A DNA stretch of 32,968 bases, taken from contig JBFEXS010000014.1 in the NCBI GenBank assembly GCA_041562555.1, positions 1 to 32,968 on the forward strand, read 5' to 3'. The position numbers are program-made. Shown here piece by piece: positions 21,001 to 30,000 of this stretch. The stretch is from Sulfurimonadaceae bacterium. GTDB lineage: Bacteria > Campylobacterota > Campylobacteria > Campylobacterales > Sulfurimonadaceae. Each line of letters starts with the position of its first letter. The stretch's first letter is position 1.

Positions 21001-24000
21001 TGGATCTTGCCGCAAACGTTGAAGACAAAGCTCTTGATAGCGCTGTTCAGTGTCGGCTTCTTTCCTTATTTGCTTATTCTTATCTATAGTCAAAACCTGG
21101 GAAAAGAGAAGATCCTGGAGTCTACACTGACGACGCATCATCTACAGATACATCAGATGAAACAGCAGTTGGAATCCCAGATGGTCACGTTGCAAAAAGA
21201 GCTTGGGTTTTTAGCCTCTTTGGATATGATGAATGATATGCTTGTCGCAGATATCGACAAGCGAATCGCCCAACTGCTTGTGCAAAAACACAAGGACCTC
21301 TCCCTTGATGTACATCTGTTTGCAATCGATAGGGATCTTCAGATGGTCTCTTCTTCTGATACCGAAAAGATACATAGTTTTCATTATCACAAAAAATTTT
21401 TACAGGCACAACACGAGAAAAAGAAATACTTTTTTACTTATAAGAGTATTGTCATGTTTACCCCCATTCACGGTAGTTTTGAAAAAGAACAGGATTTGGG
21501 ATATATGTTTATGGAGTATGCTTTTTCTAACTTCAAGTCTTTTACCGTGGATAAATATGGAGTACGTTCTACCATCTATAGTCGTGACAATGCACAGCAG
21601 GTCGGGTACCAACTGGATGAGCCATTGCTACAGGCCATTGATGATCAGTCAACGTACATAAACAAGCAGTATGTCATCATCAAAGAAGGGTTTGAAGGAG
21701 TGCTTCAAGGATGGTTTATCGTCTATGTCATCCAAAAAACAGAGGCCTTTAAATTTCTAGATACTTTTGTATATCTTATTTGGGCGCTGTTCGGATTTGG
21801 TACAGTGATCATCGCATTGATAGCTTCCTGGATCAGTAAACGTATTCTAGAGCCGATCGCCAAGTTGACAAAAGCTACAAAGTCCATCATATCAACACAG
21901 GACTATACGACGCAGGTGACAATCGAATCACAGGGAGAGATCACTGAACTTGCCCATGATTTCAACAGTATGGTTCAGGCGACGAATCATGCTTTTAGTG
22001 TTCTTGAAGAGGAGAACAGACTTCGACTCCTTCGTTTTACACAGTTGATCAATATCTTTAATCATCTTATCTCAACACAAAGTGAACGGGAGTGTATCGA
22101 GGTGGTTATGGACGAACTTCATCGTCTGATGCCTGAAAAAAGATTTTCTTTCTCCAGTGAATATGATGCATCGGAGCATGAGATCCCTCCGATGCAATGC
22201 ATGATGCTCTTCGTCAAAGACTTTGAAAAGGATACAGACGAGTTCTATGGAAAGATCACTTCTGAGACAGGGGATGCATCACATGATCCGAATGAGAACA
22301 CCTTTTATCAATCAATCGCGACTATGATCATGTTACAGTTAAACCAAATACGCCTTATTGAACGTACTCAGGAAGTTTCACGGGCAAAATCTACGTTTAT
22401 CTCTTTGATGTCTCATGAACTTCGTACTCCTTTACACACCATATTGAGTGCAGCACAATATTTGATCGGATATGAGAACACGACCCCTCAGCAGCAGGAT
22501 AAGATAGCCATTATGGAGTCTTCAGCTGAGCATCTTTTAGGTATGATCAACGATATTTTGGACCTTGTACAGATAGAAGCGGGCAAGGTGACAGCCAATA
22601 TCGAAGTACAGCAAAGTACAGCGTTGTATCTATCGATCAAAGAGACGGTGGAGATGCTGGAGGTACTGGCTGAGGAAAAAGGAATTAGCTTGACATTGGA
22701 AAACCGGCTTGACAGGGAAGAAGATGTCTTGCTTGATAAGCGCTTGTGTAAACAGATCGTGATGAACCTTATCTCCAATGCGATCAAGTTTACGGACAGC
22801 GGTTCGATCGAGGTCAGACTTGGAAAGTGTGAGAAATATATTTGTGTTGAGATCAAAGACAGCGGAATCGGAATCAGCAGTGAGAACCTAAAACGACTTT
22901 TTGAGGATTTTACACAGGTGAAAAATCGCAGTCAGAATAAACACAAAGGGAGCGGTTTAGGCCTGGCAATAAGCAGAAAACTTGCCCATCTGTTCAAGGC
23001 AGAACTGACTTTGGAAAGTGATGGGGAAGGTAAAGGAACAAGGGCTATACTCCAATTAGAAACTAATCTCTGATTGTATAACCTACACCGCGAACGGTTG
23101 TGATAAAGTTCTCTATATTGATCTTTTTTCGCAGGTTTTTAATGTGAACATCAACGAGGTTACTTTGTTTAAACCCATCATATTCACGGCATAGATGCTC
23201 ATTAAGCTGATAGCGGGTGAGTACGACATTCTTGTTTTGTAGAAGGATCTCAAGAAGATCAAATTCGGATTGGCTCAGTTTGACGGGTTCACCTTGTAGG
23301 CGGACATCCCTGCTTGTGGTATCCAAGGTTAAGTCACCAATGGAGATGACGGTACTCTTATGGGGTGATTCACGTCTTAAAAGAGCTCTGATCCGTGCCA
23401 ATAGTTCTATGTTGGAGTAAGGCTTGCAGAGATAATCATCACCCCCTGCATCCAGTACACGGACACGATCATCTACCTGGGTATTGGCTGAGAGCATAAG
23501 TACGGGCGTACTCAAGCCATCTTCACGTATTGATCTGAGAAGACTAAGGCCATCTCCATCCGGCAGGTTCCAATCAAGTAGAATAAGGTCAAAACGCTTT
23601 TCATCAATATATTTCAAGGCGCTTTCATAGTCATAGGCAACATCACAATGATAATGCTCATGTTCAAGCAGTTGTTTGAGCTGATCTGCTATGGCAATCT
23701 CATCTTCTACGATCAGTAGATACATCCAGAACCTTTTTATGTGAATAGTGTATTATAAAGTGTGTCAGCTTAATGGATTGTATCCGCCTTTTCATCAAAT
23801 CTTCATAATTGTCCTTTATACTTCTTGTATATACTATAAAAAAGGAGAGCTATAATGCAACTCCCAACAAAAATACCTGTGCATCAGTGGGCGTTTTTAT
23901 TTCTGTTCGCCTCAGAGTTTACCTATTATCTACTGATACTGCAGACAGGTATCGTTGAGTATCACCATTCCCTTATGGAAGAGATATGGATAATCCCTGT

Positions 24001-27000: not shown

Positions 27001-30000
27001 TTTGCAGATGAGCCTACGGGAAACTTGGATTCTAAAAACTCGGACAAGGTGTTTGAATTATTACGAAGTCTCGATGCTACGGTCATCGTAGCCACCCATG
27101 ACCACTCTCACATCAGATCAGACGATACGATTATCTCCCTGAAGGATGGACACTTATGTTAAAGAGACACATCTCTATCTCGTACGTTTTTTTAATTTTG
27201 GCTGCCTTATTTGGCCTGGTATATGCATTTCAGTTGATTGATATCGGTACAGGGCTAATGCGCCCGGACATTGCACGTAGCTTGCACATCTCACTGATGT
27301 TGTACGGATTTATGCCGTTGATGCTGTCGGTACTTCCTTTTGCCTTGTTTGACAAAGAGAATATTCTTAAAGATGAGGCCCTGGGGTATTTAGAAAAGTA
27401 TTTCATGCTCTGGTATGTCTTTTTAGTATTTATGATCATCTCACTACTTGCCGGGAATACACGCGCACTTCCTTTTTATGATTTTCCGTATGCGCTAAAC
27501 GGCATTCTTGCCTTTGCCGGTGTATTTTATATCATTGCACTTTTCAAGAGTATCCAACACTACGCCGTCAAACCGCTGTGGGTAAAGGTGTCTCTTGTAT
27601 TGGTGACGATCAGTCCGTTTATGCTTTTACTCCTTATGAACCCTGAATACGGCCAGGTCGAACAGATGCATTACGGGCCACACGGGGACAATACCCTGGG
27701 TATGAGCTTTGCCCTGATGGCGATCTATTACCTTGCGATCAAGCTTTCTTCGCCCAAGGTCTCTTTTGAGACTCGTTGGCATATCCTTTGGATCATCCCT
27801 CTCGGGTTTTATCTGCTCAGTGTCTTGTATCGAAGTTTTATAGGACCTATCAGTTATGAAGCGGAGTGGTTCTTACAGTATCTGACACTTCTGTATATCC
27901 CGACACTGTATCGATGGTGGAAGGATGCAGGCTTGAATATAAAAACACATATGACGCTCTTTATCTCCATCGTGGCATTTATTTTGATCGATGTGGAAGG
28001 AAACATTCTGTTTATCCCTGAGCTTCGGGCAATTTTTCACCGCAATGACCTGGTTGTCGGACATTCACATATTGCGGTAGGAATAGGATTACTGTTTCTT
28101 GCTTTTGCCATTGTCGAGTCCTATTTTAAATTATCTCTGATCAAGCGTTACGGATTGGTCCTTACGCTTGGTTTGATGTCACTCGTGCTTAGTATCAGCG
28201 GGTTCTCGCAAGCAGGATATATCGAGACAGACATCATGTCGATGTGGCAGTGGCGAACATTTTTTGGTTTACTTTTTTTTATTATTGTTGTACTGTCAAG
28301 CGGATATATACAGAGTAAGGACCTGCGTCAGCTAACGCCTTTGAAGCTGTATCATTTGGTCGCCTTCAGTTCCGATGGATTGGGTGGTCTGATGTTGATC
28401 TTCTTTGGGGAAGCACTGTTTTCCTTAATCGGACAGGCTTTTGTAGGTAGCTATCAGTATATTGTCTTTGGTTTTGTAGCAGGTGTCGGAATATCGCACC
28501 TTATCGGATATCTGTTTGCGGCGTATGCTCATTCTATGGGTCTGGCGACATCCGTTATTCGAATTATAACTGCAGCAGGTTTTTTCGCGCTTTATCAGGC
28601 GGGAACATTGGGATGGATCGCCTTAGTGATCTCAGCTTTTGACCTTGCTTTTGCCCTGGTCTATTTACTTTATTTACAAAAGGACAATCATGAAAAAACT
28701 CGTGTGGCTTAGCCTGATGTGTGCAGTAGGACTGTATGCACGTTTGGAGGTGGAAAAGGATTTTCCGGCGATCACCCTTCCGGATCAATTTGAAAAACAA
28801 CATACGATTTCTAAGGATCAAAAGATAATCATCATGGCCTTTGAAAAGGATATCTCGGTGGCGGTAAATGACTTCCTCAAAGAGAAGCCTTCAGGCTATC
28901 TGGATGAACACCATGCCAAGTATATCTCCGATATCAGTTCGATGCCATCTGTGATCACATGGATGTTTGCGATGCCAAAGATGAAAAAATACCCGTTTTC
29001 GCTGATGCTGATCAATGATGATTCGGGCAAGCAGTTCGATAGAGAAGCAGGGAAAATAACGGTGTATAGACTCCGGGAACAGGAGATCAGGTCCATAGAG
29101 TTTATTTCACCGAAAGATATCGCTTCGATTTTTAAAGAGTAATAAGAAGTACTCCAAGGTGTATGTCGGATACACTCCGACAAGGCCATGAAGGGCTTTC
29201 CCTTTTTACTCTCCTCCTTTTATTTTCAACACCTTAGGAATCATAATCCCTTAATGTCAGTGGTAAACGCAGAGTCGCTGCGACAGCATGAAGGATCTCC
29301 ATGTCAAAGTGGGAGATATTGTCATCTTCGCTTAAACAGGTGACGACCATCTGAAGGACTTTCTTTCGTACCGGTGCCTTTGCCTGTGAGATCAAGGAAA
29401 TCGATTTGTCAAGTTGTGTGTAATCGATGCTCTCAAAAGCAATGAAGCGTAAGATATCGATTCCGGCCGCCTTTGTCGCTGCATCAAAGAAGTGTTTGGC
29501 TTTGTCGTTGTCTAATGTCTGTGTGCGTGTCAATATGGAGAGAAAGGTCTGGACTTCACCTGTGATGTCTCGTATGTGATTGTAGGTCTCTTTTGTCGGT
29601 TTTTTCAAGGCAAAGGATATATCCAACGGATTCAATACAATGTGTTTGAGGTTCCATTCGAAAAAAGAGATCTGATCATCCATATCGATAAAGGCGATGG
29701 CAAAAGCTCTGAACTGTCTGTATTGTTGCAAAGACATCATCTTTAAAGAGCTGATGCTCAGCTGCATCAGATGCAGACGTGTACTGTGGGAGAGAGATTT
29801 AAGAAGGGTAAATGCCTCCTCCGTTTTTTCCAGCAGCCTGAGAGGGGTATGCTCAAGGAGCTGAAGTTGTCTTTCACGAATTGTATGAAAATCACTGCAT
29901 AATAAGGCGAGGATGACGGCTTGTGCACTGAGTGGGTTCTTCGTCATCTCCTGCAGCTGTGCAGGCAGGGAATGTAGGATAGAGGCGGCTTCATCGATCT

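Follow-up and report, generated by a model that had tools for sequence, protein, structure and literature searches.

The window analysed here, the whole 32,968-nt stretch of contig JBFEXS010000014.1 from a Sulfurimonadaceae bacterium, carries an operon in which a protein resembling subunit I of the heme-copper oxidases (HCOs) is encoded together with transport genes. A divergent response regulator and a sensor unit adjoin it. The features are listed below.

19566..20564, + strand: porin-like outer-membrane protein, opening a sensor unit of porin, PstS-like protein and histidine kinase (weak Pfam Porin_O_P, E 0.0019, and BBP2 matches)
20567..20989, + strand: small fragment, 140 aa, resembling a PstS periplasmic binding protein (NCBIfam match to the PstS family TIGR02136 at E 1.6e-6, far under the cut-off)
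20986..23073, + strand: sensor histidine kinase (weak dCache, HAMP, HisKA and HATPase_c; Pfam, NCBIfam)
23063..23725, - strand: OmpR/PhoB-family response regulator, divergent to the operon (Pfam Response_reg and Trans_reg_C)
23726..23854, no strand: divergent promoter region shared by regulator and operon (129-nt A+T-rich gap)
23855..24892, + strand: g00615, a compact transporter of MFS fold, 345 aa, without a Pfam match (AF2, VIA-align, Foldseek)
24944..25471, + strand: YceI-family periplasmic protein, lipid/polyisoprenoid-binding and lipocalin-like, with signal peptide (Pfam YceI E 9e-17, 62.3 bits, above the cut-off)
25480..26550, + strand: Type VII (MacB/FtsX-type) ABC permease, four TM helices plus MacB periplasmic core domain (Pfam FtsX 6e-17, MacB_PCD 4.9e-12)
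26551..27162, + strand: ABC ATPase, 203 aa (Pfam ABC_tran 4e-36; NCBIfam LolD/FtsE-like, under cut-offs)
27156..28712, + strand: HCO-subunit-I-like protein, 518 aa, 16 helices (Pfam, hhalign, AF2, Foldseek, VIA-align; conservation, n=188)
28690..29142, + strand: periplasmic 150-aa protein with signal peptide, mature part Cys-free (alignment A3)
29182..29199, + strand: terminator-like hairpin and T run 3' of the last gene (consensus match only; 5 in the region against 4.7 expected)

The first gene of the operon, g00615, had been left as an unknown protein by the first-pass annotation. Its AF2 model (pLDDT 91.0, pTM 0.89) retrieved nothing but MFS chains in Foldseek, and VIA-align matched it to SotB (6kki_A, Z 25.3), EfpA (8ufe_A, Z 24.9) and NorA (Z 23.8), as well as to LtaA, Spns and MFSD2A, identifying it as an MFS-fold transporter. 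The PDB sequences nearest to the permease were MacB-type (5xu1_M, 5gko_A, 5nik_J) and YtrF, with no others; of the earlier description of the ABC pair as MacB/HrtB-like, the MacB part holds and the HrtB part is not supported. The ATPase gene and the HCO-like gene share 7 nt, the stop of the one lying over the start of the other. For the last gene, ATG at 28690 is most likely the start, rather than the TTG at 28639 assigned earlier. Pfam and PDB sequence searches with its 150-aa product gave no match; atlas feature matches to AhpC-TSA (0.91) and YtfJ (0.90) are a lead towards a possible thioredoxin fold.

Pfam COX1 matched the HCO-like protein at E 2.5e-4 and 20.5 bits, below the cut-off of 34.8, and NCBIfam returned no match; across 23 members of the family, 17 matched COX1 at E<=0.1, the best at 5.6e-12. 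A word-index search in which 8000 candidates were scored yielded 596 homologs at E<=0.001. Among the 120 homologs listed, oxidase-type names were limited to 'cbb3-type cytochrome c oxidase subunit I' and 'Cytochrome C and Quinol oxidase polypeptide I'. With phmmer, 52 matches were found in 1.84 billion cluster representatives, none of them a canonical oxidase and none longer than 546 aa. A PDB profile search gave 0 matches at E<=10.

Structural comparison supported the HCO subunit-I fold proposed earlier. The AF2 model, built with 23 sequences, reached pLDDT 83.8 and pTM 0.82; its loop 171-178, which contains H176-D178, stayed below pLDDT 50. Foldseek ranks 1-7 were CcoN chains only (E 4e-6 to 5.6e-5, TM 0.52-0.61), followed by NorB 3o0r_B (E 1.1e-3). 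VIA-align, whose alignments were confined to residues 1-392, gave as best match NorB 4xyd_A (Z 26.7, rmsd 4.2, 377 aligned), then NorB 3o0r_B (Z 26.6) and cbb3 9g6b_A (Z 26.5); Z was 25-27 against NorB/CcoN and 19-21 against A-family chains and qNOR. The protein is thus modelled as an HCO subunit-I 12-helix core followed by four more C-terminal helices. The core (residues 1-392) holds H44, H303, H305, H295, D178/H176, Y234 and E237, and the extra four-helix unit (residues 395-507) has invariant D407, H448, R469 and D496.

Profile alignment of the family with the CcoN of the same genome (hhalign probability 80.9%, E 1.3e-5, 334 columns) allowed the ligand positions to be compared. H44 aligned to the helix-II His, and H295, H303 and H305 to the His-x7-His-x-His motif with identical spacing. 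By this alignment H44, H303 and H305 are the probable ligands of the low-spin and high-spin hemes, and H295 would be the loop histidine common to the whole superfamily. The columns of the CcoN His-His pair correspond to positions 232 (L/I/P) and 233 (S/T/N/M), where none of the 188 unique members has a His. The helix-VI CuB histidine aligned to D178 and not to H176; both had been named for this place earlier. The C-family tyrosine position is Arg/Lys, with an adjacent Tyr in 131/188. The ligands of the binuclear centre thus appear to be lost: an Asp, with H176 beside it, stands for the helix-VI His, and both the helix-VII His-His and the cross-link tyrosine are missing. H44, H295, H303, H305, H448, D178 and E237 were present in all 188 members; of six histidines earlier called invariant, only H176 did not hold up, being kept in 187 and replaced by Arg in P0126. 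Invariance reaches well past the heme ligands, to about 48 positions.

The HCO-like gene belongs to a fixed envelope module, which usually lies near an OmpR-family two-component system. An ABC operon had been noted in 8 of 8 loci, and its conservation proved far wider. The order permease-ATPase-HCO was found in 71/71 loci, and the ATPase-to-HCO gap, with start codons chosen by rule, was <=10 nt in all 71. YceI lies directly 3' of the MFS gene in 72/73 loci and was found in 74/80, and the Cys-free 150-aa protein in 57/80; around the fixed trio, the MFS-YceI pair and the small protein take three different positions. At the 81 loci surveyed for neighbours, the module was free of membrane-fusion and TolC genes, and the 12 most widespread neighbour clusters contained no heme c motif. 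No cytochrome c or cupredoxin subunit accompanies the HCO-like protein, and no CcoO/CcoP/NorC-like heme c protein lies nearby.

Regulators were less uniform. Members of the window-regulator cluster occur in 43/81 loci and a kinase in 34/81. The window regulator best matched PhoB in NCBIfam (192 bits, below the cut-off of 296), and the porin, PstS-like and kinase trio adjoins the module also in L004, L050 and L065. At Arcobacteraceae loci the regulators are CusR/HprR-like and the kinases CusS-like (NCBIfam, under cut-offs). Since the sensor kinases vary by lineage, there is no one obvious signal.

Among 401 sampled Campylobacterota genomes, 37 carried the HCO-like gene and exactly those 37 carried the permease; in G304 both are present in two copies. 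By family, the HCO-like gene occurred in 7/34, 5/20, 12/23, 11/19 and 1/4 genomes of five families and in 0/118 and 0/158 genomes of the two largest families searched. This patchy spread indicates that the module is accessory in nature. The hosts are sulfur-oxidising Campylobacterota. The HCO-like gene is not tied to denitrification: apart from the window's genome, 36 were positive, and of these 14 had a cNOR match and 22 had none, so that the gene neither replaces nor accompanies cNOR, and NirS was not found in the window's genome (89% complete). A reading centred on NO is therefore without genomic backing.

Taken together, these results define a separate, unclassified, Campylobacterota-centred HCO branch on the cbb3/NOR (C-family/NOR) side, as the first-pass annotation had suggested. 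Alignment with NorB gave a probability of 81.9% (E 1.1e-5, 138 columns, helices IX-XII only), and alignment with true gNOR one of 8.6%. Among the HCOs counted in the 2024 classification (Murali et al. 2024, PMC11214002), as checked in one genome, the family does not appear. That paper presents gNOR as the earliest case of a family in which so much as a single active-site histidine is replaced, in agreement with the claim that no HCO family before this one lacked two of the three. The earlier observation is confirmed and proves stronger than first described, and its interpretation is partly supported.

Our leading, still tentative, explanation is that this branch without a copper site provides an accessory heme enzyme or sensor coupled to the transport of a hydrophobic molecule. 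More specifically, we would guess at an enzyme or sensor with heme but no copper, fed by quinol and placed at the periplasmic face, that works with a lipid- or isoprenoid-handling transport module. The protein would bind two b hemes close to that face, and we conjecture that electrons come from menaquinol, perhaps via the four added C-terminal helices, in which a His/Asp/Arg/Asp set is invariant. A distal site of D178, H176, R226, Y234 and E237, copper-free and with or without a non-heme metal, could act on a small oxidant, for example NO or a peroxide, by reducing or sensing it. The cargo of the ABC and MFS-YceI pairs might be a hydrophobic molecule, either an isoprenoid quinone, a lipid or a tetrapyrrole, needed or made by the reaction. 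The role would be an accessory stress function for sulfidic, copper-poor habitats rather than respiration; for the copper argument and for the likeness to gNOR, which also has Asp in place of His and occurs in sulfidic habitats, we draw on the gNOR text of PMC11214002 and on general background.

Heme or porphyrin handling is an unlikely alternative. HrtBA extracts heme, and MacAB protoporphyrin, from the outer leaflet. A MacB-type pump could likewise extract a tetrapyrrole, with the HCO-like protein as acceptor, buffer or chaperone and the MFS and YceI proteins as carriers of the tetrapyrrole or a breakdown product. Such a role would suit invariant heme-ligand histidines beside a lost catalytic metal site, and the obligate link to a Type VII ABC pair free of fusion and TolC partners. 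However, the permease is not detectably nearer HrtB than MacB, and the conserved neighbours include no heme uptake, synthesis or degradation gene. The many invariant positions, among them D178, E237 and the C-terminal His/Asp/Arg, argue for more than passive binding.

About equally improbable is a sensor or regulatory partner that has lost catalysis, detects O2, NO or sulfide with its high-spin heme and in this way controls the gating of the ABC mechanotransducer. FtsEX and BceAB act through partner proteins, and the loss of both second metal and cross-link tyrosine, the stop/start overlap with the ATPase gene, the one-to-one phyletic pattern with the permease and the lack of an electron-donor subunit in the operon would all fit. 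Yet a two-component system is usually there already for sensing, the ligands of the low-spin heme, whose role is in electron transfer, persist in 188/188, and no precedent is known in the superfamily.

Slightly less probable still is envelope remodelling. Here a membrane lipid or isoprenoid would be extracted, altered and exported by the module, with the heme protein as the membrane oxygenase or oxidoreductase that acts on it. Mycobacterial P55-LprG is a lipid export pair; MFS-YceI would resemble it, and the ABC pair LolCDE. The ligands of the YceI family and the resemblance of g00615 to lipid transporter EfpA, LtaA, Spns and MFSD2A speak for this. So do a cytoplasmic YaeI/LpxG-like metallophosphoesterase that joins the operon in 39/81 loci, an MBL-fold hydrolase that joins the module in 25/81, and the weak phosphate-porin, PstS-like and PhoB matches of the window's sensor unit and regulator. 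But every phosphate-related match is under cut-off, both hydrolases are absent from the window operon, with paralogs elsewhere in the genome, and lipids are not a known substrate of any HCO relative. Both hydrolases are left unexplained by the redox reading that we put first.

That the protein is an ordinary, only divergent, subunit I of a cbb3-type oxidase or NO reductase is very improbable: the two oxidase names and the CcoN and NorB fold matches speak for it, whereas the absent His-His pair, the Asp at the helix-VI histidine, the replaced tyrosine, the lack of a heme c partner, the COX1 score under cut-off and the genome's own canonical ccoN-ccoO speak against it.

Among known systems, CcoN (cbb3, C-family) shares with the family the 12-helix core (Z 25-26.5), a full-length profile alignment, the helix-II His and the Arg that precedes it by three residues, the helix-IX Glu-Gly motif and the His-x7-His-x-His before and in helix X. 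The HCO-like family differs from it in the active-site replacements, the four extra helices, the patchy accessory spread and the absence of CcoO/CcoP, its gene sitting with ABC transporter genes and not with ccoOQP. NorB (cNOR), the top structural match by Z, has the same His-x7-His-x-His, likewise lacks the cross-link tyrosine and places a carboxylate close to the active site. However, cNOR FeB has three His and one Glu, against at most one His plus Asp/Glu here; the module has no NorC, and the profile alignment is limited to the last helices. The gNOR family (Murali et al. 2024, PMC11214002) resembles ours in its Asp for the helix-VI histidine and its hosts from sulfidic habitats, but keeps the helix-VII His-His, is B-family related and has a cupredoxin-like subunit II. 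This subunit was seen in L090, and gNOR and the HCO-like gene occur together in the genome behind L054.

On the transporter side, the module resembles Type VII ABC systems without a fusion partner (LolCDE, FtsEX, HrtBA; MacB for fold type) in its four-TM FtsX permease with MacB core domain, its ATPase on a separate gene and its freedom from fusion and TolC genes. We know of no such transporter that pairs with an HCO-fold protein. The retained fold and heme histidines, the lost copper site and the constant ABC neighbour thus point to an undescribed use of a classic scaffold. In E. coli yceJ-yceI, a YceI carrier gene lies beside a gene for a membrane heme b protein, which has a cytochrome b561 and not an HCO fold. 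The P19/Ftr1-linked Cj1660-1665 / FetABCDEF operons are alike in gene content, since they too combine FtsX permease(s) and an ATPase with a polytopic membrane protein and with thioredoxin-like proteins of the periplasm, but they differ in the P19 and Ftr1 genes that our module lacks.

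Few membrane enzymes are as well studied as heme-copper oxidases (HCOs) and NO reductases, and a heme together with a second-metal centre held on three His is the accepted mark of the HCO superfamily. The HCO-like protein of the window lies in a module of six tightly packed genes on the + strand, from 23855 to 29142. Going by the names attached to the closest homologs, the host is a Sulfurovum-like campylobacterotan.

Features of the module and its surroundings
19566-23073, behind the regulator: unit of porin-like protein, PstS-like fragment and histidine kinase
23063-23725, - strand: OmpR/PhoB-type response regulator, divergent from the operon
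23855-24892, + strand: MFS-fold protein, 345 aa, polytopic (AF2 pLDDT 91.0)
24944-25471, + strand: YceI (Pfam PF04264)
25480-26550, + strand: FtsX/MacB_PCD permease (Pfam)
26551-27162, + strand: ABC ATPase (Pfam ABC_tran)
27156-28712, + strand: HCO-like protein, 518 aa, its start overlapping the ATPase stop by 7 nt
28690 (likely ATG start), + strand: small secreted protein
29182-29199, + strand: terminator-like hairpin, a consensus match at chance level in this region

The likely start of the small secreted protein was placed at 28690 because its alignment (A3) begins there. Promoter and terminator scans of the region gave results at or near chance level.

The first-pass annotation had proposed an HCO subunit-I fold, and a 12-helix core was indeed recovered over residues 1-392 by AF2, Foldseek and VIA-align. 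The AF2 model (pLDDT 83.8, pTM 0.82) matched CcoN chains (cbb3 subunit I) at Foldseek ranks 1-7, and VIA-align gave Z scores of 26.7 and 26.6 to two cNOR NorB chains, 26.5 to cbb3 CcoN, and 19-21 to A-family oxidases and qNORs. All VIA-align alignments were confined to residues 1-392, and residues 395-507, which form four extra helices, fell outside every one of them. By sequence, Pfam COX1 (PF00115) reached the window's protein only under its gathering cut-off (E 2.5e-4, 20.5 versus 34.8 bits), and matched 17 of 23 diverse family members with E<=0.1 (lowest E 5.6e-12). Profile-profile comparison (hhalign) of the family with the CcoN of its own genome covered 334 columns at 80.9% probability (E 1.3e-5); comparison with a small NorB alignment covered helices IX-XII only, at 81.9% (E 1.1e-5). 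The protein is, as judged from these profiles and the predicted model, a true relative of HCO subunit I. The family stands apart: phmmer over 1.84 billion representatives matched only 52 proteins and a profile search of PDB sequences matched none.

An internal duplication check by hhalign gave 0.1-0.3% for the C-terminal four-helix unit against the three thirds of the core, and at most 2.4% for the thirds against one another, which makes the test powerless. No fused form of at least 908 aa was found, itself weak evidence. Open frames of 748 and 654 aa were rejected as ABC-HCO fusions: one locus (L094) holds the two genes in different frames, and upstream of the HCO frame at another (L095) a separate ATPase ORF is listed. 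Two family members carry in-frame stops (one TAG, two TGA; G316:C69:4552-6084 and G004:C27:8448-9995, both from sampled Campylobacterota genomes) and may be pseudogenes or reflect sequencing errors.

Conservation was assessed in 188 unique members, drawn from the listed homologs and from ORFs at 78 loci, with ligand positions mapped by hhalign to the CcoN of the same genome. Five His were invariant in 188/188: H44, H295, H303, H305 and H448. Invariant residues also included D178, E237, R103, Y108, Y112, N115, W238, N283, D298, R367, D407, R469 and D496. The earlier claim that the heme-ligand His are retained was borne out, H44, H303 and H305 aligning to CcoN ligands in all members; heme binding itself is predicted from sequence. 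In this alignment the low-spin heme has H44 as its helix-II ligand, with an Arg three residues before it as in CcoN, and on helix X, H303 and H305 correspond to the ligands of the high-spin and low-spin heme, respectively. H295 is a loop His eight residues ahead of H303, and CcoN and NorB have a His at the same spacing.

The loss of the helix-VII His pair was likewise upheld: the CcoN His-His falls on positions 232/233, occupied by L/I/P and S/T/N/M, with no His in any of the 188 members. H176/D178 had been placed at the helix-VI CuB His, a position that the CcoN alignment gives to D178 and not to H176. H176 is kept in 187/188 (Arg in a single member, P0126), and its loop is the lowest-confidence part of the AF2 model. 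The family thus lacks the three-His CuB/FeB site of the superfamily, with D178 in place of the helix-VI His and non-His residues at 232/233. The position of the C-family cross-link Tyr is R226 (R in 185 members, K in 3), and Y225 beside it is shared by only 131/188. From this CcoN-mapped conservation, both heme sites look intact and the three-His site gone.

The permease and ATPase form a type VII ABC pair (MacB/FtsX type), all three Pfam matches exceeding their cut-offs (FtsX 62.3, MacB_PCD 47 and ABC_tran 125 bits). An 'HrtB-like' label had been given to the permease and was not sustained, its PDB sequence matches at E<=0.01 being MacB-type chains and YtrF only. The conserved neighbour clusters, taken out to 8 kb, include no membrane-fusion (HlyD-type) or outer-membrane partner of MacAB-TolC type, and a heme c motif (CxxCH) was absent from all conserved neighbour clusters. 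YceI scored 62.3 bits against PF04264 (cut-off 23.7) and has an N-terminal signal-like sequence; phmmer against PDB returned no match for it, nor for the metallophosphoesterase found at other loci. A transposon study of A. butzleri (PMC12811638) was set aside, since the yceI copy in its accessible part is a different one, adjoining cusA. The 345-aa protein, previously described as unknown, is predicted with high confidence to have a 12-helix MFS fold, with SotB (Z 25.3, rmsd 3.3, 308 residues aligned), EfpA and NorA as best structural matches; it remains without a Pfam or NCBIfam match even at E<=10. The small secreted protein gave language-model leads only (AhpC/TSA and YtfJ) and no match in a PDB sequence profile search. 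It is Cys-free outside its signal peptide, which contains its one Cys; Cys is entirely missing from the MFS protein, YceI, the permease and the HCO-like protein.

Gene order was compared at the best 80 of 207 tblastn-confirmed stretches in GTDB representatives. The claim of a conserved ABC/YceI operon held: all 71 of these loci that have permease, ATPase and HCO-like gene show them in this order, with an ATPase-HCO gap of at most 10 nt in each, and YceI comes next after the 345-aa membrane protein in 72/73. The MFS-YceI pair and the small secreted protein occupy three different positions around the fixed trio, an arrangement that favours selection for co-location over recent shared ancestry. 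Among 401 sampled Campylobacterota genomes, the HCO-like gene and this permease type occurred in an identical set of 37, one of which has two copies of each. The genetic link of the HCO-like gene to the type VII ABC pair and the MFS-YceI pair is obligate, and that to the ABC pair absolute in the genomes searched.

Frequent additions among 81 loci were a response regulator (43), a kinase (34), a YaeI/LpxG-like cytoplasmic metallophosphoesterase (39) and an MBL-fold hydrolase (25). The metallophosphoesterase lies in the operon at L039:11575-12306 and 38 other loci, and the MBL-fold (Lactamase_B_2) hydrolase nearby at L003:9830-10747 and 24 others. The window's operon has neither, but its genome carries two paralogs of the metallophosphoesterase (34-35% identity) on other contigs. 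A protein of about 372 aa with no Pfam match is found just upstream of the small secreted protein at L018:2649-3767 and 13 other loci, in a Sulfuricurvum-type arrangement. The sensor unit (porin-like protein, 140-aa PstS-like fragment, dCache/HAMP kinase) adjoins the module in the window and at L004, L050 and L065, in three lineages, and its weak matches are to a phosphate porin and a phosphate-binding protein. The SulRS thiosulfate regulator, in the accessible part of PMC12936845, is a different two-component system adjoining sox genes, and no link was seen. Directly downstream of the module in the window (29234-32420, minus strand) are a 644-aa M48 peptidase together with LemA, and next a glutathione peroxidase; these are outside the module's conserved neighbours.

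The module is accessory and patchy: in five families it was present in 7/34, 5/20, 12/23, 11/19 and 1/4 of the genomes, and the two largest families searched yielded no example (0/118 and 0/158). Cultured carriers are Sulfurovum sp. NBC37-1 (SUN_1073), Malaciobacter mytili, a Sulfurospirillum and a Sulfuricurvum. A cNOR match was present in 14 of the 36 other carriers and absent from 22, and the window's own genome (89% complete) yielded neither cNOR nor NirS; the module is therefore not tied to denitrification. In one genus the module and a norCB-nirS cluster stand tail to tail (L096:1486-11176 and 11176-17848), and the module there includes the metallophosphoesterase and a Sel1/TPR protein. 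That cluster reads norC-norB-nirS-cytochrome c-nirJ-nirF-nirE; after it come a histidine kinase, whose sensor domain is of the ODP (oxygen-binding di-iron) type, and a response regulator. The distance from NorB to the HCO-like protein is about 11-14 kb in four genomes of this genus, which are close kin and so represent one event. In the window's own genome there is a ccoNO locus and, at a contig edge, the 5' end of an A-family oxidase subunit I gene (L002:2-388, minus strand), preceded by an SCO1-like protein at 659-1486. By sequence, it is predicted to encode A- and C-family oxidases in addition to the HCO-like protein.

The original interpretation is supported in part, by computation, for the HCO fold and homology, the kept heme ligands, the lost CuB/FeB ligands and the ABC link; the HrtB-like label is not supported. 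We tentatively favour a composite reading, to which we give somewhat less than an even chance. The HCO-like protein would bind two b hemes and take electrons from menaquinol; a copper-free distal pocket at the periplasmic face (candidate residues D178, H176, R226, Y234, E237) would reduce or sense a small oxidant, and the transporters would move a hydrophobic partner molecule. Two other readings, that the protein serves in heme or porphyrin handling or is a heme sensor gating the pump, both appear unlikely, and a role in lipid remodelling a shade more so. A plain oxidase or NOR, with the three-His site gone and no electron-donor subunit in the operon, is very improbable.

Beyond the composite reading, it is conceivable, if on balance doubtful, that an HCO scaffold has been rebuilt as a copper-free machine physically complexed with a MacB-type ABC mechanotransducer, in a catalytic or an ABC-coupled form. 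In the catalytic form, quinol could feed a heme b site whose Asp/His/Glu pocket holds either no metal or a non-heme metal bound by carboxylate, and this site might reduce NO, peroxide or oxidised lipid in sulfidic, copper-poor water. The ABC-coupled form could be the first coupling of ATP hydrolysis to an HCO-fold protein, for example where a hydrophobic cofactor or substrate is loaded or unloaded on its periplasmic side. The four-helix unit, with invariant H448, D407, R469 and D496, would serve as a novel site for quinol or a cofactor.

This clade, present in about 200 species-level genomes, has apparently retained the heme sites, dropped the second-metal site, added four helices and been inherited with an ABC pair; the metal site that defines the superfamily is absent while the rest of the protein is strongly constrained. 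If catalytic, it would show what heme b3 pocket chemistry is possible without copper or FeB, and bear on the evolution of O2 and NO reduction as well as on life in copper-poor, sulfidic environments. Should it be the ABC pump's partner, it would represent a new type of client for type VII ABC mechanotransmission. The result also corrects database names calling the protein a cbb3 oxidase subunit, and therefore affects oxidase gene counts in Campylobacterota genomes.

No paper on this family came up in a literature search outside subscription journals, nor any on SUN_1069 to SUN_1074 or an HCO-ABC-YceI cluster. In its accessible part, Murali et al. 2024 (PMC11214002) recognises twelve HCO families and treats gNOR, the first with a single active-site His replaced, as unprecedented; its genome table credits three HCOs (C, cNOR, gNOR) to the genome that, by inference from its name, is that of our locus L054. 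Our PF00115 search of this genome found four: CcoN, a NorB-like protein, a true gNOR and a member of the HCO-like family. The family therefore seems to fall outside the 2024 classification, in this one genome matched by name. In the true gNOR, Asp occupies the helix-VI position, His-His is retained and a cupredoxin-like gene lies upstream; its operon (L090:1372-3607, minus strand) encodes a 548-aa subunit I preceded by a 200-aa cupredoxin-like ORF. We had considered whether the 'GNOR = 1' entries for Sulfurovum/Arcobacteraceae in the accessible supplement denote the HCO-like family, and rejected this for the L054 genome, where the true gNOR is separate.

Compared with the named families, the HCO-like family lacks the cross-link Tyr of C-family (cbb3) enzymes, and its module their CcoO/CcoP cytochrome c subunits. 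Unlike cNOR and qNOR, it has neither FeB on three His and Glu nor NorC or a fused N-terminal domain. With gNOR it shares Asp for the helix-VI His; however, gNOR retains the helix-VII His-His, has a cupredoxin-like subunit II and shows B-family affinity, whereas the HCO-like family has no His-His, its operon no cupredoxin-like gene, and its hhalign probability to the L090 gNOR is only 8.6%. The feature is confirmed as real, and we class the HCO-like family as a variant within the known superfamily.
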